Assembly (NCBI GenBank): GCA_963804165.1
Contig: CAWDPO010000041.1
Coordinates: forward strand, 1 to 64,000
Source: an uncultured delta proteobacterium
GTDB taxonomy: Bacteria > Desulfobacterota > Binatia > UBA9968
Direction: 5' to 3'
DNA length: 64,000 bases
Within the stretch, counting starts at the first letter, position 1. The number at the start of each line of letters is the position of its first letter. The notes beneath the pieces were generated by a model. The model did no database searches, was not told where the DNA came from, and saw nothing but the letters and a program-made list of their open reading frames with translations. Positions 849-61,323 of this stretch are shown here, piece after piece. The position numbers were made by a program, and so were the translations under genes.

Positions 849-1234
849 AAGAAACACATTTCCAAAAAACGATGAAACCAAGTGGCGCCACCGGCAAGCG
901 TGAAAAACCCTCGTTAGCGCTAGCACGTATATTGGTAATACACTGACCAGTGTATTGTGGTTCTGTGAGAGGTGTCGTAATTGACAACTGATTGAAAGAA
1001 CGAGTAAATTCCTTTGGCCGGGATTTTAAATTATCCTATACACTGGTCAGTATACTCGGTAGTTGAACTTAAACCGCTGCGCGGTGGCGGATGCCGTAAG
1101 GCGGTTGTCTTTCTGGTTTCCCCTCCAGGTTCCCTCTTCATTTCGAACCTAGTTTTCATAGCTCGAACTCAGCGTCCATTTTTTATCTCGCGTGATAGCG
1201 TCGCTCCCAAATTTAAATCCAAGGAGGATTTGTT

Positions 1235-2079
1235 ATGGGAGCGTTACGCACAAGGATGATCGAGGAGATGAGGTTGAGAAACTTCTCGCCCCGCACCCAG
1301 CAGTCCTATCTGGCGGCCGTTGATCGGACTGGTCAAGCATTATCGACGCTCGCCGGACCAACTGACACAAGAGGAGATTCGCGCTTATCTTTTGCATCTG
1401 GAAAAGCGCGGTTTGTCGCCCAGTTCGCGCAACGTGGCGATCTCGGGGATGAAGTTCTTTTACCACCAGATGTTGAGCTGGAACGACAAGCAGTTGTTTA
1501 TTCCCGCCGAGAAGGCGCAGTTGGCAACTGCCCGAAGTGTTAGGCCAGAAGAAGGAAGTCGAGCGTTTGCTGTTGGCCTGGGAAAAACAGCGCGACCGTT
1601 GTCTGTTGACGACCGGCTTGAACTACGGGGGGGCCGGGTCAGTGAATTGGTTCGGCTCAAAGTCAGCGCCATCGACAGTGAACGGATGATGGTGCGGGTG
1701 GGAGCAGGGCAAGGGTAGAAAAGACCGCTACACGATCTTATCTGCCCGTTTGCTCACCGAGCTGCGCTCTTATTGGAAAGAGCATCGTTCGCCGATTTAC
1801 CTGTTCCCCAACCGAAAGGGTGGTCCGATATCAATCGACTACGCCCAGCGAATCTACAATCTTGCCAAGTTGAAGGCTGGTATCCAAAAAGGCCACGGTA
1901 TCCATACGCTCAGACACTGTTTTGCCACCCATCTATTGGAAGCCGGGGTGGATCTGAGGACCATTCAGACGCTATTGGGTCATAACTCGATGGCCAGCAC
2001 CGAGCGCTACTTGCAGATTCGCCAGCACAAGATCACTACCACGGCCAATCCTTTGGATCTGCTGAGACTGCCGAACTAA
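1235..2079 (+). CDS. Tyrosine recombinase (N-terminal SAM-like domain + catalytic domain), frameshifted
   Basis: [25 protein letters not shown] start; [19 protein letters not shown] and TERY motifs; colinear with the intact paralogue at 60005-60853. Confidence 0.9.
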
Positions 2080-2094
2080 GAAGGCGGTCTCACG

Positions 2095-3285
2095 GTGCTG
2101 TCTCGCGCTGATGGGCGGGCGGCAGGAGAAAAAAAGGCAAGCCCCGAACTGGCCGATGTCTTTCGTCAGTACGGGGAGCGATATCAACGAACGCATCGAT
2201 TATCGGCTTCCCAGCAGAAAGTGATGCGGGCCGTTTCGGTGTGCCGGACTCCAGAATTGGGCGGGCATCTGGATCGATGCGAGTCTTGCGGTTTTGAGCG
2301 CCCGGCTTATAACTCCTGTCGTAACCGCCACTGTCCCAAGTGCCAAGCCTTGGCTAAGGCTCGGTGGTTGGAGAAGCAAACCTCGGAGCTTTTGCCGGTG
2401 GGGTACTTTCATCTGGTCTTCACCTTACCGCATGAGCTTAACGGTCTGATTCTGACCCATAAAAAGTCTGGTGTTGGCTTTGCTGTTTAAAGCTGTCAGT
2501 AAAACTTTATTGGAGTTTGGCCAGACACGTCTTAAGGGTTCCATCGGTATCACTGCTGTGCTGCACACCTGGGATCAAACCCTTAAAGATCATTTTCATC
2601 TGCACTGTCTGGTACCCGCAGGCGCTCTGTCTTTCGATCACAGCCGCTGGATACCGGCGCGCGAAAACTTTCTGTTTCCGGTTAAGGCCTTAAGCCGGGT
2701 GTTTCGTGGAAAGTTTTTGACTCTGTTCTTGCAGCAGGCCGGTGAGAGAGGAAAACTCCCTGCGGCCGAAAAGGGGGAAACCAAAGCATTGCGCCAAAAC
2801 GAGCTGGATCGTCTACGCGAAAAAGCCTTTCGGCTCGCCACAAAACTGTCCTCGATTACCTCGGCCGCTACACTCATCGTGTGGCTCTGTCCAATGACCG
2901 CATCCTCAGAAGTCGAAAACGCAGAGGTCACCTTGAGCTACCAAAAGATCCAAAAGATGGGAATCAAAAAAAGACCCTCCCTCCTTGATGCCCAGGAATT
3001 TATCCGTCGCTTCCTGCTTCATGTCCTGCCCGAGGGCTTCATGCGCATCCGCCACTTCGGCTTCTTGGCCAACCGATCCAAGAAACAAGCCCTCGCTCAA
3101 TGCCGCAAACTCTTGAAACTTGCTCCCGCTGTGCCTCAAAGCCCCATTCTCTCAGCTAAAAAACTTGCTGCTAAAAATCACCGGCATCGATCTTTCTCGC
3201 TGCCCGTCTTGTCTTGAGGGAACGATGATTGCCGTCGGCGACCTGCCGGCTTCGTTGAGTTTAGCTCGTTGGGGATTCTTCATGA
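2095..3285 (+). CDS. IS91-family (Y2/HUH) transposase, frameshifted
   Basis: Zn-binding CESCG..NSCRNRHCPKCQ, HUH motif DHFHLHC, EFIRRFLLHVLPEGFMRIRHFG. Confidence 0.9.
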
Positions 3286-3533
3286 AAAAGATTCCTTTGT
3301 ATCTCAGCTCGTGTGAATTCCCATCCACCGCCATCGCGCGGGTGTGTCTGGCAGTAGCCAAAACTAACTTTGAAGTCGCATGGCAGTGTCGCAATCGGCG
3401 CAACGCCACCGGCGCCGATCTCAATCCCGCAGTCCTCGGGCCTTTCTTTCGTTAACAGTGCGTCAAGCCCCGCGGCACTGCATCCTGGTTACAATCCCCA
3501 TAGCCGAAGTCTCCACGGCTGCTCCGCGGTTTA

Positions 3534-6201: not shown

Positions 6202-6276
6202 TGGTGGTCCCAACGGGAATCGAACCCGTGTTCCCGACGTGAGAGGCCGGTGTCCTAACCGCTAGACGATGGGACC
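6202..6276 (-). tRNA. tRNA-Glu (CTC)
   Basis: GGTCCCATCGTCTAGCGGTTAGGACACCGGCCT-CTC-ACGTCGG...GGTTCGATTCCCGTTGGGACCACCA. Confidence 0.95.
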
Positions 6277-6277
6277 T

Positions 6278-6353
6278 TGGCTGAGGAGGAAGGACTCGAA
6301 CCTTCAATCGCCTGATCCAGAGTCAGGTGGCTTACCAATTAGCCGACTCCTCA
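6278..6353 (-). tRNA. tRNA-Gln (CTG)
   Basis: TGAGGAGTCGGCTAATTGGTAAGCCACCTGACT-CTG-GATCAGG...GGTTCGAGTCCTTCCTCCTCAGCCA. Confidence 0.95.
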
Positions 6354-6380: not shown

Positions 6381-7817
6381 TTAGCTGGGCGAGTCAAGTT
6401 GCTGGATGTATTCCAATGCCTTTCTGCAGCCGGTCGAATCGTGCGCTCTTTGCCGAGTACGGCGATGACATCGTGAATTCCGGGACTCACGGTGGCGCCG
6501 GTTAAAGCGACGCGCACCGGTTGAGCGAGTTTGCCCATCTGTATGCCGTTTTCTTAGAGCGTGGCGTGAAAGCTTGTTCGATAGCCGCCTCGATGAAATC
6601 CTCGAGCGCGGCGAGTTTCTCGATCAAGCTCTCAATCGGCGCGGCGGCGTCTCTTGGTCAAAAACTTCTTCGCCGCCTTTTCGTCGAGAAGCGATTTCAT
6701 CGGACAGATAATAATGCGCCGCATCGACCAATTCGGTTAGCGTTTTTGCGCGTTCTTGCAGCGTCGCGAGCATTTTTTCCAGCCATTTCTTGTCCTGCGG
6801 CACGGGATAACCTTTGGCTTCTGAATATAGGGCACGATCTCATCGGCCAATTGGGCGAGCGGCCGGGATTTTAAATAATGAAAATTGACCCACAAGAAAC
6901 TTTTCCGGATTGAAAACTCCGGCGGATTTGCCGACGTTTTCAAGGGTAAATTTCTCGATCAATTCTTCGCGCGAGAAGATCTCCTGGTCGCCGTAGGACC
7001 AGGCTAGACGAACCAAATAGTTCACCACCGCTTCGGGAAAATATCCCATGTCGCGGTAAGCGGTGACGGAGGTCGCGCCATGGCGTTTGCTCAGCCGCGC
7101 TTTGTCGGTGCCGAGGATGAGCGGCACATGGGCAAACTGCGGCAGCTCATGCCCAAGCGCTTGGTAAAGCTGGATCTGCCGCGGCGTGTTGCTTAAATGG
7201 TCGTCGCCACGAATGATATGAGTAATCTCCATGTCGATATCGTCGACGACGACGCAAAAATTATACGTCGGCGTGCCGTCCGAGCGGGCGATGATGAGAT
7301 CGTCCAATTCGCGATTGTCGAAAACGACATCGCCCTTGATCAAGTCGCGGACTACGGTCGAGCCCTCGGCCGGTGAGCGGAACCGAACGACATAGGATTT
7401 GTCAGCCGGCAGCGACGGGATCACGCCTTCGGGCGGACGACACGTGCCGTCGTAGGCGGGTTTGCGTTTCTCTTTCTGTGCCAACTGTCGCTTGGCATCC
7501 AATTCCGCTGGTGTGCAGGTACAGGGATAGGCTTTGCCCTTTGCTAATAGCTCATGGATCTTGTCTTTATAGAGCGGATAGCGTTCGGTTTGATAGAACG
7601 GACCTTCATCATAATCGAGCTCGAGCCATTTCATGGCGTCCAAAATGGCTTGAATCGCCTCCGGCGTGGATCTCTCGCGATCCGTATCTTCGATGCGCAG
7701 TATAAGTTTGCCGCCGTAATGGCGAGCGAAGAGGTAATTAAACAGTGCCGTGCGCGCGCCGCCGATATGCAGATAGCCGGTCGGGCTTGGCGCGAAACGA
7801 GTGCGGACTTGGGCCAT
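6381..7817 (-). CDS. gltX: Glutamate--tRNA ligase, C-terminal frameshifts
   Basis: [37 protein letters not shown]; [13 protein letters not shown] in another frame. Confidence 0.95.
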
Positions 7818-28018: not shown

Positions 28019-29424
28019 TCACTCCAGCACGGGTCTTTGTTCATGCCAGTTAGTCGCCTGCTCGTACGAGTATGCGACGCGCATCACCGTGGACTCTTCG
28101 AACGGCTCAGCGACGATTTGCAATCCTACCGGTAGATTTCCCGGAAGAAAGCCGCAAGGAACGGAAATGGCAGGTAAGCCCGTAAGATTAAACGGGTTGG
28201 TGAAACTCGGACGGAGATTTTGCTCGTTGGGATCCATGGTCGCGAATGCTTCGGGCGGGCGCGGCGCGCTGGGCACCGCGAAAACATCGACGTGGGAAAA
28301 GTTGGCGCGGATTTGTTCGTTCAAGACGGCGCGGGCGCGTTGCGCGCCGATATAGTCCGCCGCGCTCAAGAAAGCGCCTTCGAGCATGCGTCTGCGGACC
28401 GAAGTGCCGAACTTCGTCGGCGTCTCCTGGTACGTTTTCTCGTGATAGGCGTAAGCCTCGCAAACAAGAATGGTTTGGTTGGCTTTCCGTGCGAGAGAAA
28501 AAGGCTTGCCGTCGATGTCGCTGACGATGGCGCCGAGGCTTGTCAGCACGTCAAGAGCTTGGTTGAAGACCGCTTCAGTTTTCGTATCGACTCCGAGGTT
28601 TTCGTCAAACCAGCCGGAACGCGGCACCCCGACGCGTAGCCCTTTGATTCCGTCTCTAAGGCCCGATTGAAAATTGGGCACTGCCACATCGGCCGAGGCC
28701 GGATCTTTCGTGTCATATCCTGCGATCGCCTGGAGCAAGATTGCGCAGTCCGCGACGCTGCGCGCCATCGGGCCGGCGTGATCGAGCGACCAACTCAGCG
28801 GCACAACCCCGTAGCGGCTGACCCGGCCGTAGGTCGGTTTGATGCCGACGATGCCGCAATGAGACGAGGGCGTGCGAATCGATCCTCCCGTATCCGAACC
28901 GAGCGCGCCATAGCATAGCCCCGCGGCGAGCGCGGCGCCCGAGCCGCTGCTCGAGCCTCCCGGAATGTGATCGGTATTCCACGGATTTCTGACAGCGGGA
29001 AACGGCGCGTCAATCGACGGTCCGCCGAAGGCGAACTCGTGCATGCCGAGCTTGCCCGAGCAGGATTGCACCGGCTTCCCGCAGTTTCGTGAACGTTGTG
29101 GCGTCGACGTCAGGGACCCAATTCTCCAAGCACAGCCGAGTGGCAAGTCGTGCGGATGCCTCGAGTCATGTAGAGATCTTTGAGCGCGATGGGAATGCCA
29201 TGGAGCGGCCCGCGATCGGTCCCTGACCGCAACTCTTGCTCGGCTTGGTGTGCTTGTTGGCGGGCGAGATCGGCCGTCAATGTGATGAAGCTATGTAGTT
29301 TGCCGTCGATGACTTTGATACGGTTGAGCAAAGCATCGGTGATCTCAATGGGTGAAATTTCTTTGCGGCGCAGCGCTGCCGCGGTTTCCGCGATCGTCAA
29401 ATAGCAAATTTCGTTCGGTTCCAT
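28019..29424 (-). CDS. Amidase-signature (GatA-like) enzyme, frameshifted
   Basis: GPLHGIPIALKD, PGGSSSGSGAA, GSDTGGSIRTP. Confidence 0.92.
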
Positions 29425-29432
29425 GAGCTGCT

Positions 29433-29630
29433 CTATTTTCGCGTCGAGCTTGCCAGGTCAAACGTCGAAGCGGGTTCATTGCCGGCTGCAACCAGCGCGC
29501 GCAGTTCCGCGGCCTGCTTCTTTGACCGATTGACGCCAGGAAGCAGCCTCTGCAACTCGTCTTCGCTCAGTTTCAAGCCGGCGCGCTCGGCCATCTTACG
29601 CAAGGTGTCGAGGGTTATTTCTTGATCCAT
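29433..29630 (-). CDS. Small GatC/AtzG-like amidase partner
   Basis: 65 aa immediately upstream of the amidase; MAERAGLKLSEDEL..EPASTF. Confidence 0.6.
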   Translation of the reverse strand: MDQEITLDTLRKMAERAGLKLSEDELQRLLPGVNRSKKQAAELRALVAAGNEPASTFDLASSTRK

Positions 29631-38335: not shown

Positions 38336-39245
38336 TCAATATCTTCGATCGCGCCGGTCGACCCAGGACTTCGCCGGCCCCACGGCGGCGTTGAGAATCG
38401 CGCGCTTGGTCATGACGCCGACCATGGCGCGGCGATAATCCGCCGATGAGCGCACGTCGCTGATCGGTTTACTTTCTCTTGCCGCTTCATCGCCGACCTT
38501 TGCGGCAAGCTCTTCGGTCAAGACTCTGCCTTCGAGCAGCGCCTCGGAGTTTTTCGCTCGGATCGGCGTCGGCGCCACCGCGCCGAGGACAATCCTGACT
38601 CCCTGACATTTCTTGTCGCTCCCGAGGTTGTAAGCGACTGCGACGCCGATGTAGGCGAGGTCCATCATATCGCGCGGCGAGAACTTGATGTATTCGCCAA
38701 CCAATTGCGAGCCGGTCTTGGGAATGATGATTTCAGTCAGGATCTCATCGGCGTTCATGACGTTTTGCCCAGGTCCGCGAAAAAATTCTTCCAGGGCCAC
38801 GGTTCGCTCAGCATCCGCGCTGGCAATCTTTGCCGTCGCGTTCAGCGCGATCAGGCTTGGCGCCGACGTCGGCGGACGGCGTCGCATTGGCCATATTGCC
38901 GCCGATCGTTGCGCGGTTGCGGATCTGAATCGACCCGACTTCGGCGGCGCTTTGAGCGAGAAATGGGTATTTCTTCGTGATCACAGCCGACGTCTCGATT
39001 GCGTACATCGTAGTAAGCGCGCCGATGGTGATTGTGCCGTCGTTGTTCTCGCGGATGCTGTTGAGACCGGGCACACGTTTGAGATCGACGATATATTTCG
39101 GCAGCAGTCCCTTTTCCTTCATGGCGATGACTAGGTCGGTGCCGCCGGCGAGAAATCGGCCGCCGGGGCCGTTCTCTTTGAGTAGCCGGCTCGCTTCCGC
39201 GAGGGTCGCCGGCTGATAAAAATCGAATGGTTCTGTGCGTTTCAT
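38336..39245 (-). CDS. XDH-family FAD-binding subunit, frameshifted
   Basis: LAGGTDL, QIRNRATIGGN, PISDVRSSADYR. Confidence 0.92.
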
Positions 39246-39324
39246 GAAAACACTGCTTCGGAAAGAGAGCGCGGAGGGCTGAGTTTTTCTCAGCCCTCCG
39301 CATTCGTTAACGGTTAGTCTAACG

Positions 39325-49602: not shown

Positions 49603-50346
49603 TTAACGGCCCCCACGTTTCGTCTTGATCTCGTAACCGAACAGATCGCTGCGATAGAAACCGGCCGTGCGCAGAACAAGTTTCTTCTTGTGTAAATAAT
49701 TTCGCTCGACGAACAACACAGGGGAGCCGGTGGGGATTTCCAAGTGGGCCGAAACCTGGTGGTCCGCGAGCTTGGCGCTGACAACCAGCTTGAGGCCAGC
49801 AATCTTGATCCCCAGCCGGTCTTCAATGATGTTCGTGAGCGGCTGTTTCAGCAGCCGGTCTCGCGGGACCTTATCAAGCATGCGGGCGGGGACGTAGGAA
49901 TTCACGAACGCGAGGGGGCGACCGTATGCCATCCTCACCCGCGTGATCTTCGTGATTTTTTCATCCGCATCCAAGTTAAAATCTCGGCGCAGCTCTGGCG
50001 CGGCCGTTTTTGTGTCGATCCGCAGCACTTTGAAGCTCGTACCTTCCGGATTGATGCTCACAAGATTTGCCGCATCGATTTCGAGATTAATCGGCTGCTT
50101 GACCGGTCCGCTCCAGGTGACGAAAGTTCCCTTGGCGCGCTCGCGGCGCACCAAGCCTTCGCGGGTCAAGTCTGCGAGGGCTTGGCGAACCGTGATGACG
50201 CTAACGTCGAGGCGTCGCGCCAGATCCAATTCGCCGGGGAGCTGGAATCCCGTGCGCCATTCGCCCGATAAAATATTGTCGCGGAAAGCGGTCATGACTT
50301 TAAAGTAGAGCGGCACTGGAGAGGGAGAACTGCTAGCGAGGCGCAT
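49603..50346 (-). CDS. GntR/HutC (UTRA) transcriptional regulator
   Basis: PLYFKV, LPGELDLARRLDVSVITVRQAL, KGTFV, UTRA-like C-terminus. Confidence 0.9.
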   Translation of the reverse strand: MRLASSSPSPVPLYFKVMTAFRDNILSGEWRTGFQLPGELDLARRLDVSVITVRQALADLTREGLVRRERAKGTFVTWSGPVKQPINLEIDAANLVSINPEGTSFKVLRIDTKTAAPELRRDFNLDADEKITKITRVRMAYGRPLAFVNSYVPARMLDKVPRDRLLKQPLTNIIEDRLGIKIAGLKLVVSAKLADHQVSAHLEIPTGSPVLFVERNYLHKKKLVLRTAGFYRSDLFGYEIKTKRGGR

Positions 50347-50391
50347 GTCGATTACCTATATGTTTGCAACAGGAGGTCAATTTGCCGGATA

Positions 50392-51069
50392 TTATGGCGA
50401 GTTTTCCTTGGATCGTGCCGCGGCAGGAATTGTTCGTAGCGCTTCCAAGATCTGCTCGTTGGTGGGTCTCTTCTTATAGTCTGTTTCAATAAAGCGCCAA
50501 CGCACGACACCCTGTTTGTCGATGACATAAGTCGCCGGGTGCGGCCAGCCCTTGTTGTTCGGATTTAAGATTCCATACCGGTTGATGACCTTGTGATCTT
50601 TGTCTTCGAGTAGCGGAAAATCGAGATCGCCGGTAAATCTCTCTTTGAGTTTTTGCACGAATTTTTTCGAATCATCGTGACTGTCGACGCTGACCGCGAG
50701 GATTTGAACCTGATTTTTTTCCTCTTTGGTTAGGAGGCCTTTCAGCTCACCGAGCTGTTGTGTGCAGTAGGGTCACCATTGGCCACGATAAAACACCAAT
50801 ACAACATTCATTTTGCGATAGACTTCTGAAAGAGTAATTCTCCGTCCATCCAAGTTTTCAAGCGTAAAGTCCGGCGCGGTATCCCCGACTTTGACTCTCT
50901 CCAGGTCGGTCGGCGGCAGATCCGCGACGTCTTTAGGGCCTAATTGTGCATTAGCCACGGCAACGGCTAGGTAAAGGAAACTGAATGCAATCGTTATTGC
51001 TAAGCGGTTTCGGAAAGTAGAGCTTTCTCTTGGACGCTCGATACGCCAAATGTGTTTTCCCCACGTCAT
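50392..51069 (-). CDS. Predicted selenoprotein: exported peroxiredoxin-like (AhpC/TSA) protein, UxxC, Sec at TGA 50773-50775
   Basis: Two in-frame ORFs join as FYRGQW-U-PYCTQQL; hairpin CAGCUC-GGU-GAGCUG with loop at +22. Confidence 0.88.
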
Positions 51070-51214
51070 GGCAATTGTCTCCTTTCGTCACAAAGTAAAT
51101 CCAGATCATTTACACCGCTCGTTATCCAGCGTTACGTCACGGTCTATGAACGATATTCCGCGACAATAGGTTTCCGGATCGAGCAAATCGTCAAATGAGC
51201 ATCACAGCGCCCGC

Positions 51215-51706
51215 CTATTGTTGTTGCGCCTTTCTCTTTTTGAAGAACTGGATATGACTCAACGCGTCGGCGGCAACGATACGTCCGATGGGGCCGATAC
51301 TGTACGAGGCATCACACACCTTTTTGTCCGAATCCAGGATGAAATTCGTGGCGTGGATGATCTTTCTACGCTCTTCCCAGAAAGCGCCGACCTTGTCGGC
51401 GTCTCTCGGCACTTCAAGTCCATAGGCCACGGGAAAGGTGAGTTGCAACTTGTCGACGGTCTCTTTCGCTTTGTCCAAGGGGTCGACCGAGAGAGCCACC
51501 ACGTCGACATTTTCCTTTTTGAATTCTTCGATGTGGGATTGGTAGTCGGCCAACTGCCGCATGCAGTACGGTCACCAACTGCCGCGATAGAAAATCAGCG
51601 CGGCGTACTCGCCCGTGAGGTCCTGGGGCAGACGAAGTGTTTGACCGGCGGTCGTTTGCACCTGGTACTCCGGGAACGAATAGCCAAAGTTGAGCTGTCG
51701 TGCCAT
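51215..51706 (-). CDS. Predicted selenoprotein: peroxiredoxin-like (AhpC/TSA) protein, UxxC, Sec45 at TGA 51572-51574
   Basis: GGGGAG RBS, ATG at 51706, MARQLNFG..IFYRGSW-U-PYCMRQL in frame; weaker hairpin GG(C)AGUU-GGCC-GACU(A)CC. Confidence 0.85.
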
Positions 51707-51929
51707 ATATTCTCCCCTCAGAATTTAATCATCGAACTTCGAACCCCTGCGCAGTTGCGACGCTACCCACCGAACTTCGCGTTGCTCCAGGCGGTCATCG
51801 ACTTGGGATTTCGCGACGCGCATGTTGACTGCTTATATGATTAATAGTAGGAGGTCAATTGATTTGTGTCGCTGGCGTGCTGTGTAAATTCGCCGCGGCG
51901 CGACAATTTTTATGGGGGAGGTTCTCATT

Positions 51930-52439
51930 ATGGCGGAGCATTCAGCAGGGAAGAGCGGCCAGCCGGGAGGAATGCCCGGCCGTCCGATCGGCACGGTGCG
52001 CGTCGATATCGCGCGCCAGGAGCACAAAACGTTCGAGGCGGTTTTCAAGACCGAGGACAAGTCATTTCAGCTCATGATCGACGAGCCGGAAATTCGCGGC
52101 GGCAAAGGCACGGGCCCGACGCCGCTGGGTTACTTCGTCACCGGCGCGGCTTCCTGCTTGATGATGCAGTACGCCAACGTTTTGAAGGAGAAGCCGATGC
52201 CGGTGGAAAGCATCAAGATGCTGGCGCGGGCGCACAACGACCGCGACGCGCGGGTCTTCACCGATATGATTTACCAGGTCGATCTCACCGGGTCGATCTC
52301 CGAGGCCGATGCGGAAACGCTGGCAAAGGCGGCCAGTGCGCGCTGCTTCGTAGAGAACACTATCGCCAAGGCGCTGCCGATCACGACAGAAGTAAGCGTC
52401 AATGGAAAAAAGGTCGTGTCGTTCACACGAAATAGTTAA
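51930..52439 (+). CDS. OsmC-like protein (Cys form)
   Basis: DEPEIRGGKGTGPTPLGYFVTGAASCL and ARCFVENT; GGAGG RBS. Confidence 0.88.
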   Translation: MAEHSAGKSGQPGGMPGRPIGTVRVDIARQEHKTFEAVFKTEDKSFQLMIDEPEIRGGKGTGPTPLGYFVTGAASCLMMQYANVLKEKPMPVESIKMLARAHNDRDARVFTDMIYQVDLTGSISEADAETLAKAASARCFVENTIAKALPITTEVSVNGKKVVSFTRNS

Positions 52440-52475
52440 ATCGCCCATCCACCGCGGGAAGATTAGGAAATCACG

Positions 52476-52637
52476 ATGATCCACCTTTACTACTGGACTA
52501 CGCCGAACGGACACAAGATCACGATCTTCCTAGAGGAAGCTGGGCTGCCGTATTCGATCAAACCGGTCAATATTTCCGTGGTCGGCATGATACCGCGGTC
52601 GGGTGGGAAACGGTTAATCGACGCCTGCAACCGGTAA
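52476..52637 (+). pseudogene. Truncated YfcG-like glutathione S-transferase N-terminus
   Basis: MIHLYYWTTPNGHKITIFLEEAGLPYSIKPVNI followed by an unrelated tail and a stop after 53 aa. Confidence 0.75.
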
Positions 52638-52651
52638 GAGGAGAGCGGGTT

Positions 52652-53323
52652 ATGCCCTGGATTAAAATAATTGCCGAGCATGAAGCCGAGGGCGAGCTTA
52701 AAGAGGTCTATAGGAAGATCCGCGAGCAGCGTCAGGGTGAGAAGATCAACCAGGATCGCGATGCGTCCGCCGGCGGGCCGCCGGTGAGCCCGCCGATGCT
52801 GCACAGTCTGAATCCCAAAGCGATGTGGCACACCGCCGAGCTGATGTGGGAGATCATGCGCGGGGAGTCGCGGCTGACCACGGCGCAGCGCGAGATGATC
52901 GCCACCGTGACATCGGCGACGCTGCACTGCCGCTTCTGAACCGTCGCCCACGCAGAGTTTCTGCGTCAGGAAGGCGGCGACGATTTATCGGTAGAGCAAG
53001 TCAAAGACGATTGGCGGCAGATGGAGCTGACCGAAGCCGAGTACACAATGTTGGAATTTGCGGAGAAACTAACGCTCACGCCGAGCAACATGCGCGAAGC
53101 GGACGTGCAGAAATTGCGCGACGTCGGCTGGACCGATCGCGACATCCTCGATATCGTCCACGTGTGCGCCTATTTTAACTTTCGTGTGCGAGTCGTCGAC
53201 GGGCTCGGACTGGAAGTTGCCGATTGGCAGATCCAGCGCGCGAGAGCCGGCGCGCAGCGCGCCGCCAAGTTGGCTGAAGAGCGCGGTGTGGCCATGCCAT
53301 CTGATCCTTGGAAGACACGTTGA
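52652..53323 (+). CDS. Predicted selenoprotein: AhpD/CMD-like peroxidase-related protein, CxxU, Sec96 at TGA 52937-52939
   Basis: REMIATVTSATLHCRF-U-TVAHAEFL continues in frame to AEKLTLTP..AYFNFRVR; hairpin ACGCAGA-GUU-UCUGCGU with lower stem CGUCGCC/GGCGACG. Confidence 0.9.
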
Positions 53324-53332
53324 GGAAAAGTA

Positions 53333-53980
53333 ATGAGCTTCATCAAAGTTATTTACGAGTCCGAAGCGACGGGCGAGCTAAAAGAAGTTTACGAGAGAAC
53401 GCTTAGTCGCTTAAGTCCATCCGTGCGCCAGCGACGCGGCGACAAGCTGCCACCGATCGTGAGAATTTTTAGCCTTTGTCCGGCGCTGCTCGAAGCGCGG
53501 GTGGGCTTCGACAAGGGCATTTACCGGCCCGGCCATTCCGGCTTGGGCCGGCGCAAGGAAGAGCTGATCGCGACTCAGGTGGCGGCGCTGAGTGGCTGCC
53601 GGTTTTGAGGCATCGGCCACGGAGAGTTTCTCCGTGTCGACGGCAAGATGGCGGTGGAGGAAGTCGCCAAGGTGATCTCCAACTGGCGTGAGGCCGATCT
53701 GGACGAGCAGGAAAAAGCCATGCTCGCGTTCACCGAAAAGTTTACACTCACGCCGAGTCAAATGACCGACGCCGATCTCGAGAAGCTGCGCCAGGCGGGC
53801 TTCAGCGACGAACAGATTCTTTCCATCGCTTTGGGCGCCGGCTATCGAAACTGGGTGGATCGCATCGCTGATCTGCTCGGCGTCGAGGAAGAAAAGTTCG
53901 ACTTCCCGGAGGAAATTTTGAAAGCCTTCGGCGTCACCCGCGAGCAGCTTGAGACCTCGCTCTACGAGGATAACCGATGA
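53333..53980 (+). CDS. Predicted selenoprotein: AhpD/CMD-like protein, CxxU, Sec92 at TGA 53606-53608
   Basis: ELIATQVAALSGCRF-U-GIGHGEFL in frame; hairpin CACGGAGA-GUU-UCUCCGUG. Confidence 0.9.
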
Positions 53981-54420
53981 GCCGCTTGCAGACCGTCATG
54001 GGAACGAGAATCGCGGATCTGCTTGGCGCGGCGCCGGGCGCGCTCGAAGCGGACAGCGCCATGCGCACTCTGCTCATCGAACATTTGACGCCGCGGCTCT
54101 TCAGTTTGATCGGTATCGTGGTAGCCGGTTGCCTCCGCTGCGAGCGTTTCGCCGACGCGCTGCGCGCCCCACTGGATCAGCCATCGGCCCAACAGGCTGC
54201 CCGTGATTGGCGGGCGCTTGAACTTTCGGCGGCGGAAAAGGCGATACTTGCCTACGCGGAAAAGGGGACTCTCGACGAGGCCTCGGTGCGCTGGCGGGAC
54301 GTAGATCAGCTACGCGCGGCGGGTCTCGACGACAGGGATATTCTCCTGATCGCAACGGCTATCGCTTATCATAATTACTCGATTCGCATGGCAGCGGCTT
54401 TTGACGTCGCGCCGTGCTGA
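53977..54420 (+). CDS. AhpD/CMD-like protein, CxxC form
   Basis: GCLRCER, LSAAEKAILAYAEK, LRAAGLDDRDIL; ATGA overlap with the previous gene. Confidence 0.8.
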   Translation: MSRLQTVMGTRIADLLGAAPGALEADSAMRTLLIEHLTPRLFSLIGIVVAGCLRCERFADALRAPLDQPSAQQAARDWRALELSAAEKAILAYAEKGTLDEASVRWRDVDQLRAAGLDDRDILLIATAIAYHNYSIRMAAAFDVAPC

Positions 54421-54456
54421 GGGTGTCGGCGTACAAAAAACCAGCGCGCGAAAAGA

Positions 54457-55395
54457 ATGTACGTTCTTGAAGTTTGGAAGGATTATGGCATGCGCGGAAT
54501 AACTCCTAGACGAGAGCAAGGGATGGCAGATCCGGTGTTGGCCGAGATGGTTCATGCAACGGGCGCTACGGAGTCCCGCCACTACGCGGCGGTGAAACCG
54601 ACCATTCAGGCCTATCGCGCCAGTTGGGTGAAATTGGCGCCCTATCGAGATGGTCCCGTGAATTCGCAGCGGGTCCAGGTCGACGACCCCGCGGGGATAA
54701 CTGCACAGGTCAAAGCGAAAGCGATGGAGTTGGGCGCGAACCTGATCGGGGTCTGCCGCTTGCAGCCGCATATGATCGATCTCGGCTCGGAGGTATCACA
54801 GGAGTTCGTGATCGCGTGCTGCGTCGCGGAGGATTACGATAAGGTCTTGCGGGGCGCAGATGCGGTGGAAGAAGAGGCGATGCGAACCTATGCGAAGTGC
54901 ACCGAGATCGCCACGGCGCTGGCCGCTTACGTGCGCGAGATGGGCTACCCGGCGATCGCCCACCACAACGGCGCCAGCGAGGTGCAAGCGATACCGATTT
55001 TCTATCAAGTCGGGTTCGGCGAGCTGGGCCGCCACGGCAGTTTGATCAACGAAAAATACGGCGCGAGTTTTCGTCCGGGTTTCGTGACGACGGACCTGCC
55101 GCTGGTGGAAGATCAGCCGCGGGAATTCGGCGTGCAGGACTTCTGCATGAACTGCAACGTCTGCCAGCGCAACTGTCCGGGCGATGCGATACCGCAGGAT
55201 CATGTGGTCACCCACGGCATCAAACGTTGGCTGATCGATCTAGAGAAATGTTATCCCTACTCGCGACTGCGCGAAGAGTACTGTCATCTCTGCGTCGACG
55301 CGTGTCCGTATATCGTGAAGTCTTATCCCGAAACCTATAGAGCGTTCATGAAGGAGCGCAAACAAGTGGGCTACAAGACGCCGAAAACATATTGA
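54457..55395 (+). CDS. Reductive dehalogenase / QueG-like double [4Fe-4S] protein (start may be downstream)
   Basis: GFGELGRHGSLINEKYG..VTTDLPL, FCMNCNVCQRNCP, C-x10-CHLCVDACP; no Tat signal. Confidence 0.8.
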   Translation: MYVLEVWKDYGMRGITPRREQGMADPVLAEMVHATGATESRHYAAVKPTIQAYRASWVKLAPYRDGPVNSQRVQVDDPAGITAQVKAKAMELGANLIGVCRLQPHMIDLGSEVSQEFVIACCVAEDYDKVLRGADAVEEEAMRTYAKCTEIATALAAYVREMGYPAIAHHNGASEVQAIPIFYQVGFGELGRHGSLINEKYGASFRPGFVTTDLPLVEDQPREFGVQDFCMNCNVCQRNCPGDAIPQDHVVTHGIKRWLIDLEKCYPYSRLREEYCHLCVDACPYIVKSYPETYRAFMKERKQVGYKTPKTY

Positions 55396-55673
55396 TGGAA
55401 ACCGACGATCAGGGAGGATTCTCCCGCCAAGGCGCAAAGGCGCCAAGTTCGGAAAGTTTCACAATGGAAAAACTCTACGTTAACGAAATCGGTCCCGATG
55501 GCGCCGTCAGCACCGTAGGCTTGTTTTACTCGCAGGCCGAGGCCGAAAAGATTGTCGGCATGCTGCGCGCCAATCCAGACCGAGCAAGCTATAGGTATGA
55601 AATCGTCGAAGCAGTCAGACATATCTTGTCTGAGAAGCAAGCGCGTCGGGCCGTGGCCGGTCAGAAGGAGTAG
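55392..55673 (+). CDS. Small hypothetical protein (start possibly at the MEKLYV ATG)
   Basis: Fills the gap in the operon and abuts the RBS of the next gene. Confidence 0.5.
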   Translation: MMETDDQGGFSRQGAKAPSSESFTMEKLYVNEIGPDGAVSTVGLFYSQAEAEKIVGMLRANPDRASYRYEIVEAVRHILSEKQARRAVAGQKE

Positions 55674-55675
55674 CC

Positions 55676-56227
55676 ATGCCCTATATTAAAACGGTGCCGC
55701 CGGCCGAGGCTACCGGCAAACTCAAAGAAGTCTATGAGTCGGGCTCCGGCCCATCGGCGGCGCGCGGCAAGGTCTCTATGATCCGCCAGGTGCAAAGCCT
55801 CAATCCCGACAACCTCGCCGCCTGGCGCGCGCTCGACGTATCGATCATGCGCGGCGAATCGCGCATCACGCGCCGCCAACGCGAGATGATCGCGACGGTG
55901 GTGTCGGCGACCAATCACTGCAGCTATTGAATGACCGCGCACGGAGAGGCTCTCCGTACCGAATCGAACGACGATCCTCTGGTCGAAGGGATTAAACAAG
56001 ATTACACACAGTTGAATTTATCCCCGGCAGAGCGGGCCATGTTGGATTACGCGGTCAAATTGACGGTCGCACCGTCGACGGCGAGTGAAACGGATATCCA
56101 TACTCTACGCACCCACGGCTTCGACGACCGCGACATTTTGGATATCGTCTACGTGATCTGCCTTTACAATTTCAACGACCGGATGGCCGATGCCGCCGGC
56201 ATTACCGGGCATGATTTTTTTAGATGA
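55676..56227 (+). CDS. Predicted selenoprotein: AhpD/CMD-like protein, CxxU, Sec85 at TGA 55928-55930
   Basis: REMIATVVSATNHCSY-U-MTAHGEAL; hairpin ACGGAGA-GGC-UCUCCGU. Confidence 0.9.
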
Positions 56228-56274
56228 GATCATTCAATCGTTCGAGTGTAACGCCCAGTTAGATAGGAGGAAGC

Positions 56275-56820
56275 ATGAGCAAACCCTTAGGCAGGATCGA
56301 TCGAGAAGCGTTTCGGCAAGTGCACAAGGAGCAACAAGAACGGGCGAAACAGGGGCCGGAAGGCTATACGACAACGACGCGGGCGGTGATCAGGCTCATA
56401 GAAAACCAATTGAAAGAGGCGCGCATCGGCGAATACACCATTCAATGCGATGAGGCGAAGTCGCGCAAGGGCGGCGGCAAGGCGCCGTCACCGCTGCAAT
56501 ACTTCGTCGCGGCGACCGGCTTTTGAATGTTCAGCCAACTGGCGCGGTACGCGTCACAACTGGACATCGAAATCGAGGACGCCGAGATGGATATCCGAAT
56601 GACCTATGACACGCGAGGGAAATTGCTGCTGGAAGACGTGTCGCCGGGGTGCAATGATCTGACCTACGTTTTCAAGATTAAGAGCCCGGCGCCGTCCGAC
56701 AAGGTGCAAGAGATGCTGCGGCTGATCGAGAAGGGCTGCCACACGATCAATTCATTGAAAAATCCCGTGCCGGTCGCCGGAAAGCTGATTCATAACGGTC
56801 AGGAGATCGCCGCGCTGTGA
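56275..56820 (+). CDS. Predicted selenoprotein: OsmC-like protein, Sec84 at TGA 56524-56526
   Basis: PSPLQYFVAATGF-U-MFSQL aligns with PTPLGYFVTGAAS-C-LMMQ of the Cys paralogue; second Cys in KGCHT; hairpin AUGUUCAG..UGGCGCG-GUA-CGCGUCA..CUGGACAU. Confidence 0.9.
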
Positions 56821-56868
56821 TTCCTACATGTTCAACTTAGCGAAGTCGACGTCAGGAGGCAGAATTTC

Positions 56869-57657
56869 ATGATCGAGCTTTATCACAACGATATGTCGGT
56901 TTGCGCGCAGAAGGTGCGATTCGCCTTGGCGGAAAAGAAGCTTTCCTGGGAGGGGCACCATCTAAATCTTCGCGCCGGCGATCAGCAGAAGCCGGAATAT
57001 TTAAAACTTAATCCCAACGCGGTGGTGCCGACTTTGGTGGACGATGGGAACGTTATTATCGAGTCTACGGTGATCTGCGAATATCTCGACGATACCTATC
57101 CTGAGCCAAAGCTTAAACCCGCCGATGCGCTGGGGCGGGCGCGCATGCGCTTATGGACCAAGCAGCTCGACGAAGGCGTGCACGCGGCAACCAGCGTCGT
57201 CAGCTCGGCCATCGCGTTTCGCTATCAGAAGCTCGCTATCGGCATGGAAGCGCTCGAAGAGTTTCACGAGAAGATGCCCGACCCGGTGAAGCGGGAAAAA
57301 AGCTGGGAGAATGTCACCAAGGGCGTCGAATCGCGTTTCTTTCCCGAGGCGATCAAGCGCTTCGACAGGCTGCTCGCGGACATGGAAGTGTCGTTGACAG
57401 ACTCGCCGTGGCTTGCCGGCCGGGAATTTTCCCTCGCGGATATTGGCTACGCTCCGTACATCACTCGGCTCGATCATCTGCAGTTGCAGTTTCTCTGGGA
57501 CAAGCGGCCCCATATCCCCGATTGGTACGACCGCTTGCGTGAACGCCGTGCTTACAACGAGGCGCTGGAAAAATGGTTCAACGCGAATTACCTGCCGCTA
57601 ATGAAAGAAAAGGGTCTCGAAGTTCGCGACAAAATCAAAGCGATTGTGGCGGGATAA
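56869..57657 (+). CDS. Glutathione S-transferase family protein
   Basis: SVCAQKVR, LNPNAVVPTL, IESTVICEYLD, FSLADI. Confidence 0.92.
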   Translation: MIELYHNDMSVCAQKVRFALAEKKLSWEGHHLNLRAGDQQKPEYLKLNPNAVVPTLVDDGNVIIESTVICEYLDDTYPEPKLKPADALGRARMRLWTKQLDEGVHAATSVVSSAIAFRYQKLAIGMEALEEFHEKMPDPVKREKSWENVTKGVESRFFPEAIKRFDRLLADMEVSLTDSPWLAGREFSLADIGYAPYITRLDHLQLQFLWDKRPHIPDWYDRLRERRAYNEALEKWFNANYLPLMKEKGLEVRDKIKAIVAG

Positions 57658-58572: not shown

Positions 58573-58816
58573 TAAACCGCGGAGCCGCTGAGCAGCTGCG
58601 GCTATGGGGATTGTAACCTGACGCAGTGCGGCTGAGCAGGGCACCGCGTTAGCGATAGTACGGCCAGTGGATGATGGTTGAGATCAGCGCCGGTGGTTTT
58701 TCGCCGATTGCGACACTGCCATGCAACTTCAGAGGCGGTTTTGGGCAGAGCCAAACGCACCCGCGCTAAGTCGGCAGATTGAGAGTCACACCAGCTGAGA
58801 GGCGATGGAGCCTTGC

Positions 58817-59992
58817 TCATGAAGAATCCACACGAGGCGAGATCGAGAACGCCGGTAGGTCGCCGACGACAATCATCCTTCCCTCACCGCAGCACGGGCA
58901 GCGAGAAAGATCGACGCCTGTGATTTTAAGCAGCAGGTCTTTGGCTGAGAGCAAGGGAGGTTGCGGCAAAGCGGGATCGAGATCGAGGAGTTTGCGGCAC
59001 TGAGCGAGCGCTAGTTTTTTGGCGCGGTTAGCCAACAAGCCGAAGTGACGGATGCGCATGAAGCCTTGCGGCAAGACGTGAAGCAAAAAGCGGCGGATAA
59101 ATTCCTGGGCCTCCAGCGTCATGGTCTTTTTGCGATCCCCGTCTCTTCGATCTCGATAACTCAAGGTGACTTCTCCGTCTTGGATCTGGAGAATACGATT
59201 GTTGGACAGCGCCACGCGGTGGGTGTAGCGGCCGAGGTAGTCAAGCACCGTGTGGGGCGAGCCGAAAGGCTTTTTGGTATAGACCCCCCAGTTCTTTTGG
59301 CGTAACTCGTTGATGGCTTCGCTTGGGAAATCGATTTTTCCTCGCACGATGTTGTGTTGTAACAGATCGAGAAACTTTGCTCGGAAAACCAAGCTTAAAG
59401 CTTTAACCGGAAACAGAAAGTTTTTGCGCGCCGAGATCCAGCGATTTTGATCGAAAGACAGAGCACCGGCGGGGACAAGACAGTGCAGATGAAAATGATC
59501 CTTGAGGGTTTGGTCCCAGGTGTGCAGCACGGCAATGATACCGATGGTTCCCTTAAGACGTGTCTGGCCAAACTCCAACAAGGTTTTACTGACAGCTTTA
59601 AACAGAAGACCCAGTACGATCTTCTTGTTGGCAAGGATCAGCCGGTTCAGTTCATGGGGTAAGGTAAAGACCAAATGAAAATATCCCACCGGCAAAAGCT
59701 CAGAGGTTTGCTTCTCCAACCACCGAGCCTTAGCCAAGGCTTGGCACTTGGGACAGTGGCGGTTACGGCAGGAGTTATAAGCCGGACGCTCAAAGCCGCA
59801 AGACTCGCATCGATCCAGATGCCCGCCCAACTCTTGGGTGCGGCAGGCCGAAACGGCCCGCACCACCTTTTGCTCGCAGGCCAATAAACGATGCGTTCGT
59901 TGGTAGCTCTCCCCGTACTGACGAAAAACATCGGCCAGCTCGGGACGCGCCCTTTTTTCTCCTGCCGCCAGCCCAGGGCTGGCCGGCAGCAT
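58817..59992 (-). CDS. IS91-family (Y2/HUH) transposase
   Basis: NSCRNRHCPKCQ, DHFHLHC, YLGRY, RIRHFGLL. Confidence 0.93.
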   Translation of the reverse strand: MLPASPGLAAGEKRARPELADVFRQYGESYQRTHRLLACEQKVVRAVSACRTQELGGHLDRCESCGFERPAYNSCRNRHCPKCQALAKARWLEKQTSELLPVGYFHLVFTLPHELNRLILANKKIVLGLLFKAVSKTLLEFGQTRLKGTIGIIAVLHTWDQTLKDHFHLHCLVPAGALSFDQNRWISARKNFLFPVKALSLVFRAKFLDLLQHNIVRGKIDFPSEAINELRQKNWGVYTKKPFGSPHTVLDYLGRYTHRVALSNNRILQIQDGEVTLSYRDRRDGDRKKTMTLEAQEFIRRFLLHVLPQGFMRIRHFGLLANRAKKLALAQCRKLLDLDPALPQPPLLSAKDLLLKITGVDLSRCPCCGEGRMIVVGDLPAFSISPRVDSS

Positions 59993-60004
59993 GTGGCTAC
60001 CTGG

Positions 60005-60853
60005 CTACAGCGAGTCGTTGCGCGGATCGAGCAAGTCCAACGGACTCGTGGTCGAGCCCAGCTTGGGCTGGCGGATTTGCAGATAGCGCTGGGTACTCTG
60101 AAGCGAGTTATGACCCAACAGCGTCTTAATAGTCACCAGATCCACTCCCGCTTCTAACAGGTGGGTGGCGAAACAGTGACGCAGCGTGTGAATCCCTTTG
60201 CCTTTTTCAATGCCGCTTTTGTGCTTGGCGAGATTGTAGACTTTCTGCGCGGCGGTGATGTGCAGGGGATCATTTCTGGTTTTACCAAAGAAGACCCACA
60301 GCACGGGTTGATAGGCCTGCTTATATTTTCTCAGCTCGCCAAGCAGCCGTTGGGAGAGAATCGTGTAGCGGTCTTTTTTCCCTTTGCCCTGTTCCACTCG
60401 GATCATCATACGCTCGGGATGAATGTCGCTGAGTTTGAGGTGGATTAGCTCAGTGACCCGAAGTCCCGCCGCATAAGCGGTCATCAGTAAACAGCGGTCT
60501 CTGAGCTTGACCGCGGCGCAAAGCAATCGCTCGACTTCCCTGGGGCTCAACACCTCGGGCAACCGCCACGTCCGTTTTCTCGGCGGCAAGAACAGCTGCT
60601 CTTCGTTCCAGCCCAAAACTTGCTGATAGAAAAACCGTAGCCCCGAGATCGCCACGTTCTGGGAATTGGCGGATAAGCCTCGTTTCTGGAGATGCAACAG
60701 ATAGGCGCGGATCTCGTCTTGCGTCAGTTGATCCGGGAATCGATGATAGTACCTGGCCAGCCCCACCATCGCCGCAACGTAGGACTTCTGCGTCCTCGAT
60801 GCGAAATTTCTCAGCTTCATCTCCTCGATCATCTTGTCGCGTAATACTCCCAT
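60005..60853 (-). CDS. Tyrosine recombinase
   Basis: [41 protein letters not shown]. Confidence 0.95.
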   Translation of the reverse strand: MGVLRDKMIEEMKLRNFASRTQKSYVAAMVGLARYYHRFPDQLTQDEIRAYLLHLQKRGLSANSQNVAISGLRFFYQQVLGWNEEQLFLPPRKRTWRLPEVLSPREVERLLCAAVKLRDRCLLMTAYAAGLRVTELIHLKLSDIHPERMMIRVEQGKGKKDRYTILSQRLLGELRKYKQAYQPVLWVFFGKTRNDPLHITAAQKVYNLAKHKSGIEKGKGIHTLRHCFATHLLEAGVDLVTIKTLLGHNSLQSTQRYLQIRQPKLGSTTSPLDLLDPRNDSL

Positions 60854-61323
60854 AAAAAACCCTCCTTGGATTTAAATTTGGGAGCGACGCTATCACGCGA
60901 ACTGAGAAAACCGGGAGTGGAATTGAACTGTGAAACCTAACGCAGATTTCGAAAGCAGTCTAAAGCAGAAAACTCCGCACGGCATCCCCACCCGCGCAGC
61001 GGTTTAGTTCAACTATTAAGTGAGCTGCCGTAGGCCGCGACAATTACTGGTCGGCTTATCCTCGGCGACGGCTTCGACAACAAAAGTCCAAATTGCCTAC
61101 AATATCCATCAGCTACCGAGTCATGTCAACTCAGCGTTTCCGACAAAAGCCGACCGACGCGGCGGGTTATCTCCCTCTCGATCGGCGGCTTATGCCAGCT
61201 AAAGTTCAGGTGCATCCGTCGGTCCCGCTTGCATGTGCCATTGCGCCTGGATCTCGCCTGCACGGTTTCTCTTGCTCCGCGTCCCGTTTCCGCAGTAGAG
61301 ATTAAAGGAGAAGGGGCCGGACT

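Follow-up and report, generated by a model that had tools for sequence, protein, structure and literature searches.

Hairpins of a bacterial selenoprotein gene cluster are probably ordinary selenocysteine insertion elements inherited with each gene family

Introduction

The experimentally characterised paradigm of a bacterial selenocysteine insertion sequence (SECIS) is the element of Escherichia coli fdhF, and binding of E. coli SelB needs particular bases in the loop and the bulge of the SECIS. In fdhF (NC_000913.3), the UGA is codon 140, a GGUC loop begins at +19 (offsets are given throughout in nucleotides after the UGA), and a composite helix starts just after the UGA. Here we analyse hairpins of this kind in a stretch of 64,000 nucleotides from an uncultured delta proteobacterium (Desulfobacterota; Binatia; UBA9968), namely positions 1 to 64,000 of contig CAWDPO010000041.1 in assembly GCA_963804165.1, which we call the window. 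Its genes of interest are predicted from sequence to encode thiol-peroxidase-type redox enzymes with selenocysteine (Sec, U): three AhpD-like proteins with a CxxU motif (AhpD1, AhpD2 and AhpD3), one OsmC-related protein and two peroxiredoxins (PrxA and PrxB).

The published model of bacterial SECIS (bSECIS) elements, which lies behind bSECISearch, is summarised in PMC13188914. As given there, it has a loop of 3-9 nt, an upper stem of 4-16 bp, a G in the first two loop positions (mostly as G[G|U]), a spacing of 16-37 nt and a minimum free energy (MFE) of -7.5 kcal/mol or below. AhpD-like (CxxU), OsmC-like and peroxiredoxin selenoproteins with predicted SECIS elements were described from marine metagenomes in 2005 (PMC1088965). 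The same review that quotes the model assigns the AhpD-like selenoprotein family to TIGR01926 (CxxU) and, in its section 9, mentions that peroxiredoxin-like and AhpD-like selenoprotein genes cluster (PMC13188914). A search of the literature on selenoproteins in Binatia or Binatota returned nothing relevant.

Five of the six window elements lie within every bound of the bSECIS model as quoted in PMC13188914, with loops of 3 nt, stems of 6-8 bp, spacings of 17-21 nt and MFE values of -8.3 to -20.7 kcal/mol. Their loops (GUU, GUU, GGC, GUA and GGU) all have a G in the first position followed by G or U, and the elements differ from the general model in lying at the small, close end of each range. 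The sixth, in PrxA, is only a marginal fit to the model as quoted, with AGUUG as its loop on a 4-bp stem (4-5 bp), 16 nt of spacing and an MFE of -6.1 kcal/mol. The geometry is also nearly the same as that of fdhF, and AhpD1 and OsmC have a similar two-tier helix, but the upper stem of fdhF is bulged and ends in a tetraloop, whereas the window elements are triloops on uninterrupted stems of 6-8 bp. Compared by family and motif, the window genes belong to the same selenoprotein families and have the same redox motifs as those in PMC1088965, except that the OsmC-like proteins are given there as UxxT and the OsmC-related protein of the window reads U-M-F-S. The SECIS elements described here are real, well supported and of a known kind.

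Hairpins at the candidate selenocysteine codons of the window

The 45 nt after each UGA were folded with RNAfold, and the MFE is -20.7 kcal/mol for AhpD1, -19.2 for AhpD2, -12.2 for AhpD3, -16.7 for OsmC and -8.3 for PrxB. A preliminary description of this DNA had reported hairpins at these five codons, and all five are present in the sequence at the offsets it gave, including the loop G at +18 in each of the three AhpD-like genes (Table 1); the PrxB hairpin lies outside the interval to which it had assigned them. It had also called the design compact and shared. Only AhpD3 is truly compact, since AhpD1, AhpD2 and OsmC stand on longer, two-tier composite helices. The AhpD1 hairpin is continued by a lower helix that pairs about 52942-52949 with 52973-52982, the AhpD2 hairpin lengthens into a bulged helix in orthologues, and OsmC has a lower stem of 8 bp between +1..+8 and +34..+41. 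The design is indeed shared by five UGA codons, but not by the sixth.

At this sixth codon (PrxA, UGA at 51574), no hairpin with a 6-8 bp stem and a triloop beginning with G (a G-first triloop) is found, and PrxA fails the design test defined below. Two mutually exclusive small hairpins can form instead, and the same two are found in three orthologues. One, at 51547-51559, is CGGC-AGUUG-GCCG, with a G at +18 and an MFE of -6.1 to -7.5 kcal/mol. The other, at 51553-51567, has an MFE of -5.5 kcal/mol, and its loop at +10..+14 is nearer to the UGA than the published model allows. The whole 45-nt fold of PrxA reaches -8.1 kcal/mol, but its loop is too near the UGA.

The hairpins are specific to Sec codons. 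On both strands of the 64 kb there are 21 perfect G-first triloop hairpins with stems of at least 6 bp and seven with stems of at least 7 bp; the AhpD elements account for three of these seven, and a fourth is AhpD3 read as its reverse complement. We then defined the design as a G-first triloop at +16..+24 on a stem of at least 6 bp in which no more than one pair is G-U, and examined TGA triplets in all frames of the window. It is present at 11 of 2056, of which five are candidate Sec codons and the remaining six lie out of frame or antisense to genes, which corresponds to 5/6 candidate Sec codons versus 6/2050 other TGA triplets. For a comparison with ordinary stops, we took the window and its 12 closest loci (see below) and collected the TGAs that end open reading frames (ORFs) of at least 150 amino acids and have enough downstream sequence (n = 105). 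The design occurs at one of them, which is itself a Sec codon (AhpD2 of the related locus L010), leaving none among 104 ordinary stops. A looser, geometric bSECIS test was passed by 58 of the 105 (one a Sec codon) and was dropped as uninformative for that reason.

No Rfam family matches the elements at gathering thresholds over the whole window, and at E up to 10 over 50300-57000 only two chance matches to small RNAs were returned. The window was also screened for further selenoprotein genes. Apart from the known codons, 77 TGAs are preceded by 40 or more open codons and followed by 60 or more; three of these frames are read-throughs of the true stops 53321, 54418 and 56818 between known genes and were left out. 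In the other 74 frames, which were checked against Pfam, no domain spans the TGA in a manner suggestive of Sec, and the only matches extended by reading through it are to a decayed integrase and a frameshifted amidase.

Conservation and covariation in relatives

A species-representative genome collection was scanned with the three window AhpD paralogues as query, which gave 78 loci (numbered with L where a locus has to be named). The closest loci, with 72-91% identity, are metagenome-assembled genomes labelled Candidatus Binatia, 'uncultured delta proteobacterium', Syntrophobacteraceae, Thermodesulfobacteriota or Udaeobacter. TGA-carrying orthologues in related loci are 83-90% identical for AhpD1, 87-91% for AhpD2 and 72-91% for AhpD3. 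We note that AhpD3 of the contigs labelled Candidatus Udaeobacter (L001 and L004) is 85-89% identical to that of the window, as close as in contigs labelled Binatia or 'delta proteobacterium' (L005-L007), and the taxonomic labels of these bins therefore disagree.

When the three proteins were compared by tblastn with all loci and the window, 104 positions aligned with the Sec column, comprising 85 TGA, 9 TGC, 5 TGT and 5 other codons. Three of the TGA forms are those of the window and 82 are in other genomes; the five other codons belong to a degenerate paralogue. In almost every TGA form, a hairpin of the type ACGG(A/G)G...CUCCGU starts at +11, with a loop of GUU, GGC, GGG, GGA, CGGGU or CGGGA and an encoded peptide U-x-x-x-H-G-[A/E]-x-L-R. 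Hairpins of this type are found in Chloroflexota, Gemmatimonadota, Acidobacteriota, Calditrichia, a Bacillus and Halanaerobium. Of the 85 Sec forms, 84 have a hairpin whose stem reaches 5 bp or more and whose loop begins at +15..+26, 81 have a G in the first two loop positions and 72 a G at +18. In contrast, only 5 of the 11 full-length cysteine (Cys) forms have any such hairpin, and one has a G-first triloop. The mean local MFE is -8.94 kcal/mol in Sec forms and -4.68 kcal/mol in Cys forms (Mann-Whitney p = 3.8e-5, with sequences that are not independent). Sec forms keep the peptide H-G-[A/E]-x-L-R, and Cys forms have moved to another one.

The hairpins also covary. The 85 AhpD elements form a gapless alignment of 81 distinct rows and 36 columns with a 7-bp helix, in which 85.0% of cells are paired, compared with 34.6-54.3% when the partners are slid. 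Two-sided changes occur at three of the seven pairs, in 31 cells, and comprise C-G to U-A, G-C to C-G, and A-U to C-G or G-C. The covariation score is 0.219 versus 0.127 for shuffles, and none of 500 shuffles scores as high, although these statistics are not probabilities because the sequences are related. When the same structure is imposed on the 11 Cys forms, pairing is 44.2%, a value that 251 of 500 shuffles equal or exceed. The exchange of GCAG/CUGC for GGAG/CUCC, which the preliminary description had read as compensatory, is real and corresponds to the G-C to C-G change at columns 17/27 (55 versus 12 sequences). This change is found in the AhpD1-like clade only, and the C-G to U-A change in several phyla.

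Hairpins of the other families are conserved in a similar way. In OsmC, five of five orthologues from the close loci retain the hairpin, as do two paralogues of 29-32% identity at the same position. In these eight sequences, which include the window gene, 98.2% of cells are paired and three of seven pairs show compensatory changes, all of which come through the two distant paralogues. The PrxB hairpin recurs in L008 and in the Acidobacteria relative L034 (7 bp, GGC loop), and is weakened in L018.

The preliminary description regarded the hairpins as SECIS-type elements and named three findings that would speak against this: equal frequency after ordinary TGA stops, equal frequency in Cys-encoding relatives, and no covariation among TGA-containing relatives. 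None of the three was observed, as the counts above show, and this part of the description holds.

Some AhpD-like Sec genes depart from the common hairpin. In five of them (L057, L063, L065, L069 and L074; near 10250), the hairpin is shifted by two bases and has a GGUCU loop, close to the GGUC loop of E. coli fdhF. Their peptide is H-H-R-R-G-L-R-R-L; four are labelled Actinomycetota (Acidimicrobiia/-ales and relatives), and L074 only 'bacterium'. An Acidobacteriota-type subgroup (L020, L034, L038, L054 and L072), with the peptide H-[G/A]-E-D-L-R-[A/V]-E, has another hairpin farther downstream, whose loop starts at +24 or +25; the SECIS has therefore changed position inside a single protein family. 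A fourth AhpD-like paralogue with Sec (L003:4194, L018:10933 and L067:10894) has the motif K-C-S-Y-U, is 42-45% identical to AhpD2 and carries the same GUU triloop at +18. It lies between AhpD3 and the OsmC gene in three related genomes and is absent from the window and from L008.

Probable family inheritance and its alternatives

The elements belong to families. The spacing of the loop G is constant in the paralogous AhpD genes and differs by family (+18 in AhpD, +21 in OsmC and +22 in PrxB), and the equal spacing of AhpD1, AhpD2 and AhpD3 is due to their shared ancestry as paralogues. The 85 AhpD elements were used to build a covariance model, R1, which was searched against the window without filters and with E up to 10. 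Its scores are 39.6 bits at AhpD1, 34.7 at AhpD2 and 41.1 at AhpD3, and the next best match in the 64 kb has 11.6 bits. Even at this E value, the OsmC, PrxA and PrxB elements are not reported. The families therefore share geometry only and have no common model, and a single SECIS model for all of them was rejected, as R1 matches only the three AhpD sites.

These results change the picture drawn in the preliminary description, which had proposed a lineage-specific minimal consensus with its loop at a fixed distance from the UGA, usable for mining the rest of the genome. The distance is fixed only within a family, and PrxA does not fit it at all. The AhpD hairpin with its G at +18 occurs in many phyla, and all its features lie inside the bSECIS model as quoted in PMC13188914. 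The covariance model finds the three AhpD sites sharply and no OsmC or peroxiredoxin element. We therefore conclude, at a rough probability of 85%, that the hairpins are SECIS elements of the ordinary bacterial sort, passed down with each gene family across phyla. The lineage-specific minimal consensus does not stand, save for a modest preference of the lineage for a closed triloop.

This preference is the core of an alternative that we consider unlikely, in which the SelB of the lineage is co-adapted to a G[G/U]N triloop on a helix of 6-8 bp, 17-21 nt after the UGA. SelB might, improbably, have narrowed to such a triloop on an uninterrupted helix, so that all four AhpD-like clades, the OsmC clades and one peroxiredoxin converged on it or were held at it. 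Under the same doubtful assumption, these gene families would drift to loops of 4-6 nt elsewhere. On this view, the design would belong to the organism as such and would lead to its further selenoprotein genes, which we hold to be just as unlikely. To weigh this, the window and the 12 closest loci were taken as the lineage, with 28 AhpD-like Sec genes inside and 57 outside. A G-first triloop at +18 is present in all 28 genes of the lineage, which represent four paralogue clades, versus 16 of the 57 outside; the OsmC genes (two distant paralogues included) and one peroxiredoxin gene also have G-first triloops. Outside the lineage, 44 of 57 genes have a G at +18, and the closing pair is often missing, in which case the loop is CGGGU. 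This alternation between triloop and CGGGU is the loop pattern quoted in PMC13188914, where the base pair closing G[G|U]N is optional.

A mining scan with the design over the lineage loci (215,846 bases, 6680 TGA triplets) also bears on this alternative. It gave 66 matches, namely 38 of 43 homology-defined Sec codons and 28 non-Sec TGA triplets. None of the 28 survives a filter of at least 60 open codons on each side, which amounts to no false match in 216 kb, and the scan of these loci brought no new selenoprotein gene. The recovery of 38 of 43 is circular for AhpD and overstates general performance, because the loci were chosen by AhpD homology. All five misses are peroxiredoxins: PrxA in four of four orthologues and one PrxB-like gene. 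Against a lineage-tuned design also stand the taxa listed above, from Bacillus to Chloroflexota, where the same hairpin is found, G-first triloops at +18 included. In addition, the OsmC and peroxiredoxin hairpins also move with their families, and R1 does not cross between families.

A much less probable explanation is that the hairpins are by-products of conserved active-site amino-acid motifs and have no function at the RNA level. The stems are indeed made of codons for conserved residues (H-G-E-x-L-R, R-Y and Q-L-G-E-L), and a Cys-type peroxiredoxin (L053) also forms a small CUGC/GCAG hairpin, encoded by its Y-C...Q codons. However, synonymous sites are selected for pairing. The Gly codon of the 5' arm is GGA or GGG (GGR) in 57 of 60 sequences against a background of 0.366, and the Arg codon of the 3' arm is CGT in 57 of 70 against a background of 0.159. 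The third position of the Leu codon follows the Gly/Ala change on the opposite arm (55 G-C and 12 C-G), and in six sequences a change of His CAC to CAU is paired with a change of the partner from G to A. This synonymous bias toward pairing argues against a mere by-product of protein conservation, and the structure is lacking in Cys forms; the explanation is already largely refuted. The last alternative, that the TGAs terminate translation in split genes or pseudogenes and that the hairpins are other elements, such as stability or termination signals, is in keeping with the lack of visible Sec machinery in the window but has next to no chance of being right, since 14 Cys-form relatives have the second Cys of CxxC where the TGA stands, the 82 genes elsewhere retain the TGA, single Pfam and NCBIfam domains span it, the frames downstream are open for 97-127 codons, and NCBIfam has curated '(seleno)protein' models for the OsmC-related family.

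Several points weigh against family-inherited, ordinary SECIS elements as a full account, besides the relatedness of the aligned sequences already mentioned. The Sec codon of PrxA has no convincing element, as its best candidate hairpin taken alone (-6.1 kcal/mol) misses the published threshold. The strict triloop bias of the lineage is not obviously explained by inheritance alone, which would allow for a degree of tuning in the lineage. At columns 17/27, the change from G-C to C-G may be a single event, because it is confined to the AhpD1-like clade. Finally, selA, selB, selD and tRNA-Sec were not found in the 64-kb window (Pfam maps; the only tRNAs are Glu and Gln), and because of this we infer, rather than observe, that the organism decodes Sec.

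The gene cluster and its surroundings

The genes and elements are listed in Table 1. With the TGA read as a residue, Pfam CMD spans the UGA in AhpD1 (8.3e-11), AhpD2 (1.5e-10) and AhpD3 (3.6e-12), OsmC does so in the OsmC-related gene (3.3e-15), and AhpC-TSA in PrxB (1.6e-37) and PrxA (2.9e-22). The three AhpD-like proteins score 131.5, 99.0 and 141.1 bits, respectively, with TIGR01926 'peroxidase-related enzyme' (curated cutoff 81.8), and they have the motifs CRFU, CRFU and CSYU, with xxxH after each. The OsmC-related protein scores 151 bits with NF041052 'OsmC-related (seleno)protein' (cutoff 95), and its U aligns with a Cys of the adjoining Cys-type OsmC paralogue, which itself scores 90.8 bits and thus falls below that cutoff.

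Two Cys paralogues in the cluster serve as internal comparisons. After the TGC of the Cys-type OsmC paralogue, there is no comparable or conserved hairpin, and the folds are -6.6 to -10.3 kcal/mol. The degenerate CMD-like paralogue scores 54.1 bits with TIGR01926, below the cutoff, and has no hairpin equivalent to the AhpD elements; in L006, L008 and L018, the orthologous genes carry TGC and a different fold. The start of this paralogue overlaps the AhpD2 stop (ATGA), and the gene is kept in L006, L008, L010, L018 and L067.

Table 1 Positions of the selenoprotein genes, their hairpins and the Cys-type paralogues in the window
Feature	Coordinates	Strand	Details
AhpD-like selenoprotein gene 1 (AhpD1)	52652..53323	+	Sec UGA 52937-52939; true stop TGA 53321-53323; CxxU motif
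AhpD1 SECIS upper hairpin	52950..52966	+	ACGCAGA-GUU-UCUGCGU; 7-bp stem; loop G 52957 (+18)
AhpD-like selenoprotein gene 2 (AhpD2)	53333..53980	+	Sec UGA 53606-53608
AhpD2 SECIS upper hairpin	53618..53636	+	CACGGAGA-GUU-UCUCCGUG; 8-bp stem; loop G 53626 (+18)
AhpD-like selenoprotein gene 3 (AhpD3)	55676..56227	+	Sec UGA 55928-55930
AhpD3 SECIS hairpin	55941..55957	+	ACGGAGA-GGC-UCUCCGU; 7-bp stem; loop G 55948 (+18)
OsmC-related selenoprotein gene	56275..56820	+	Sec UGA 56524-56526
OsmC SECIS	56527..56567	+	Upper stem 56540-56556, UGGCGCG-GUA-CGCGUCA (7 bp, one G-U); loop G 56547 (+21)
Peroxiredoxin selenoprotein gene (PrxB)	50392..51069	-	Sec UGA 50775-50773; UxxC; 'peroxiredoxin 1' of the preliminary description
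PrxB SECIS hairpin	50743..50757	-	CAGCUC-GGU-GAGCUG; 6-bp stem; loop G 50751 (+22)
Second peroxiredoxin selenoprotein gene (PrxA)	51215..51706	-	Sec UGA 51574-51572
Cys-type OsmC paralogue	51912..52439	+	Non-Sec comparison; aligned Cys codon at 52155
Degenerate Cys-type CMD-like paralogue	53977..54420	+	Internal non-Sec comparison; CLRC motif, without the conserved His

The region 50392-57654 holds six selenoprotein genes in about 6.5 kb, together with the two Cys paralogues. A glutathione S-transferase gene (56869-57654) lies within the same redox cluster, and an iron-sulphur protein encoded at 54490-55392 resembles reductive dehalogenase/QueG (TIGR02486, 115 bits, below the cutoff of 160). 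The gene order of the cluster is mostly kept in L006, L008, L018 and L067.

Other features of the window were recorded. Two inverted copies of one module, at 1179-3424 and 58678-60909, each encode a phage-type integrase and an IS91-family (Y2) transposase, are 73-88% complementary and flank about 55 kb that includes the selenoprotein cluster. The ORFs of the right module are intact; the left one is fragmented, with an in-frame TGA at 1687 within the integrase. An amidase gene (28022-29457, minus strand) is split between two frames near 29110-29146, with Pfam Amidase positions 1-71 and 96-444 in the two parts, which suggests a frameshift, a pseudogene or faulty assembly. A glutamyl-tRNA synthetase-like ORF (6627-7817, minus strand) has a TGA at 6842 right after the catalytic domain and is without the anticodon-binding domain; past this TGA, another 71 codons are open in the same frame, and the ORF may reflect a frameshift or a truncation. 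Genes for tRNA-Glu and tRNA-Gln lie just downstream of it (6202-6353). In an operon of the CO/xanthine dehydrogenase type, the ORF of the flavoprotein subunit (38339-39303, minus strand) contains only the last 50 positions of FAD_binding_5, and the upstream part of this domain is in another frame or lost.

Discussion

The structures described above suggest a mechanism. Each hairpin would act as an mRNA element within the coding sequence and is expected to recruit SelB carrying Sec-tRNA(Sec), and the recruited SelB would allow the upstream in-frame UGA to be read as selenocysteine. SelB binding and actual Sec insertion at these UGAs are predicted. The hairpin of each family is written into conserved codons and passed on with the gene across phyla: H-[G/A]-[E/A]-x-L-R gives ACGGAG...CUCCGU in AhpD, and the corresponding codons are those of L-[A/T]-R-Y-A-S in OsmC and of Q-L-G-E-L in the peroxiredoxin. 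The families have only the generic bSECIS geometry in common, that is, a small loop starting with G[G/U], 17-21 nt after the UGA.

If the unlikely reading of a narrowed SelB were true, a short descriptor and a filter for open frames would be enough to retrieve most of a large selenoproteome rich in redox proteins. The group is little studied, and its closest relatives carry the labels Binatia or 'delta proteobacterium'. For ordinary elements inherited with their families, the value is mostly one of annotation, as any annotation of this 6.5-kb redox cluster that does not read UGA as Sec would present six genes as truncated or split. A bSECIS test based on geometry alone does not discriminate, as more than half of the TGAs ending long ORFs pass its loose version. 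Family-specific SECIS covariance models are sharp and could serve to pick out AhpD-like selenoproteins when metagenome-assembled genomes are annotated. The accepted view of how bacteria decode Sec is unchanged. What the data show for these families is RNA structure constraining coding sequence, with Sec forms that use synonymous codons biased toward pairing.

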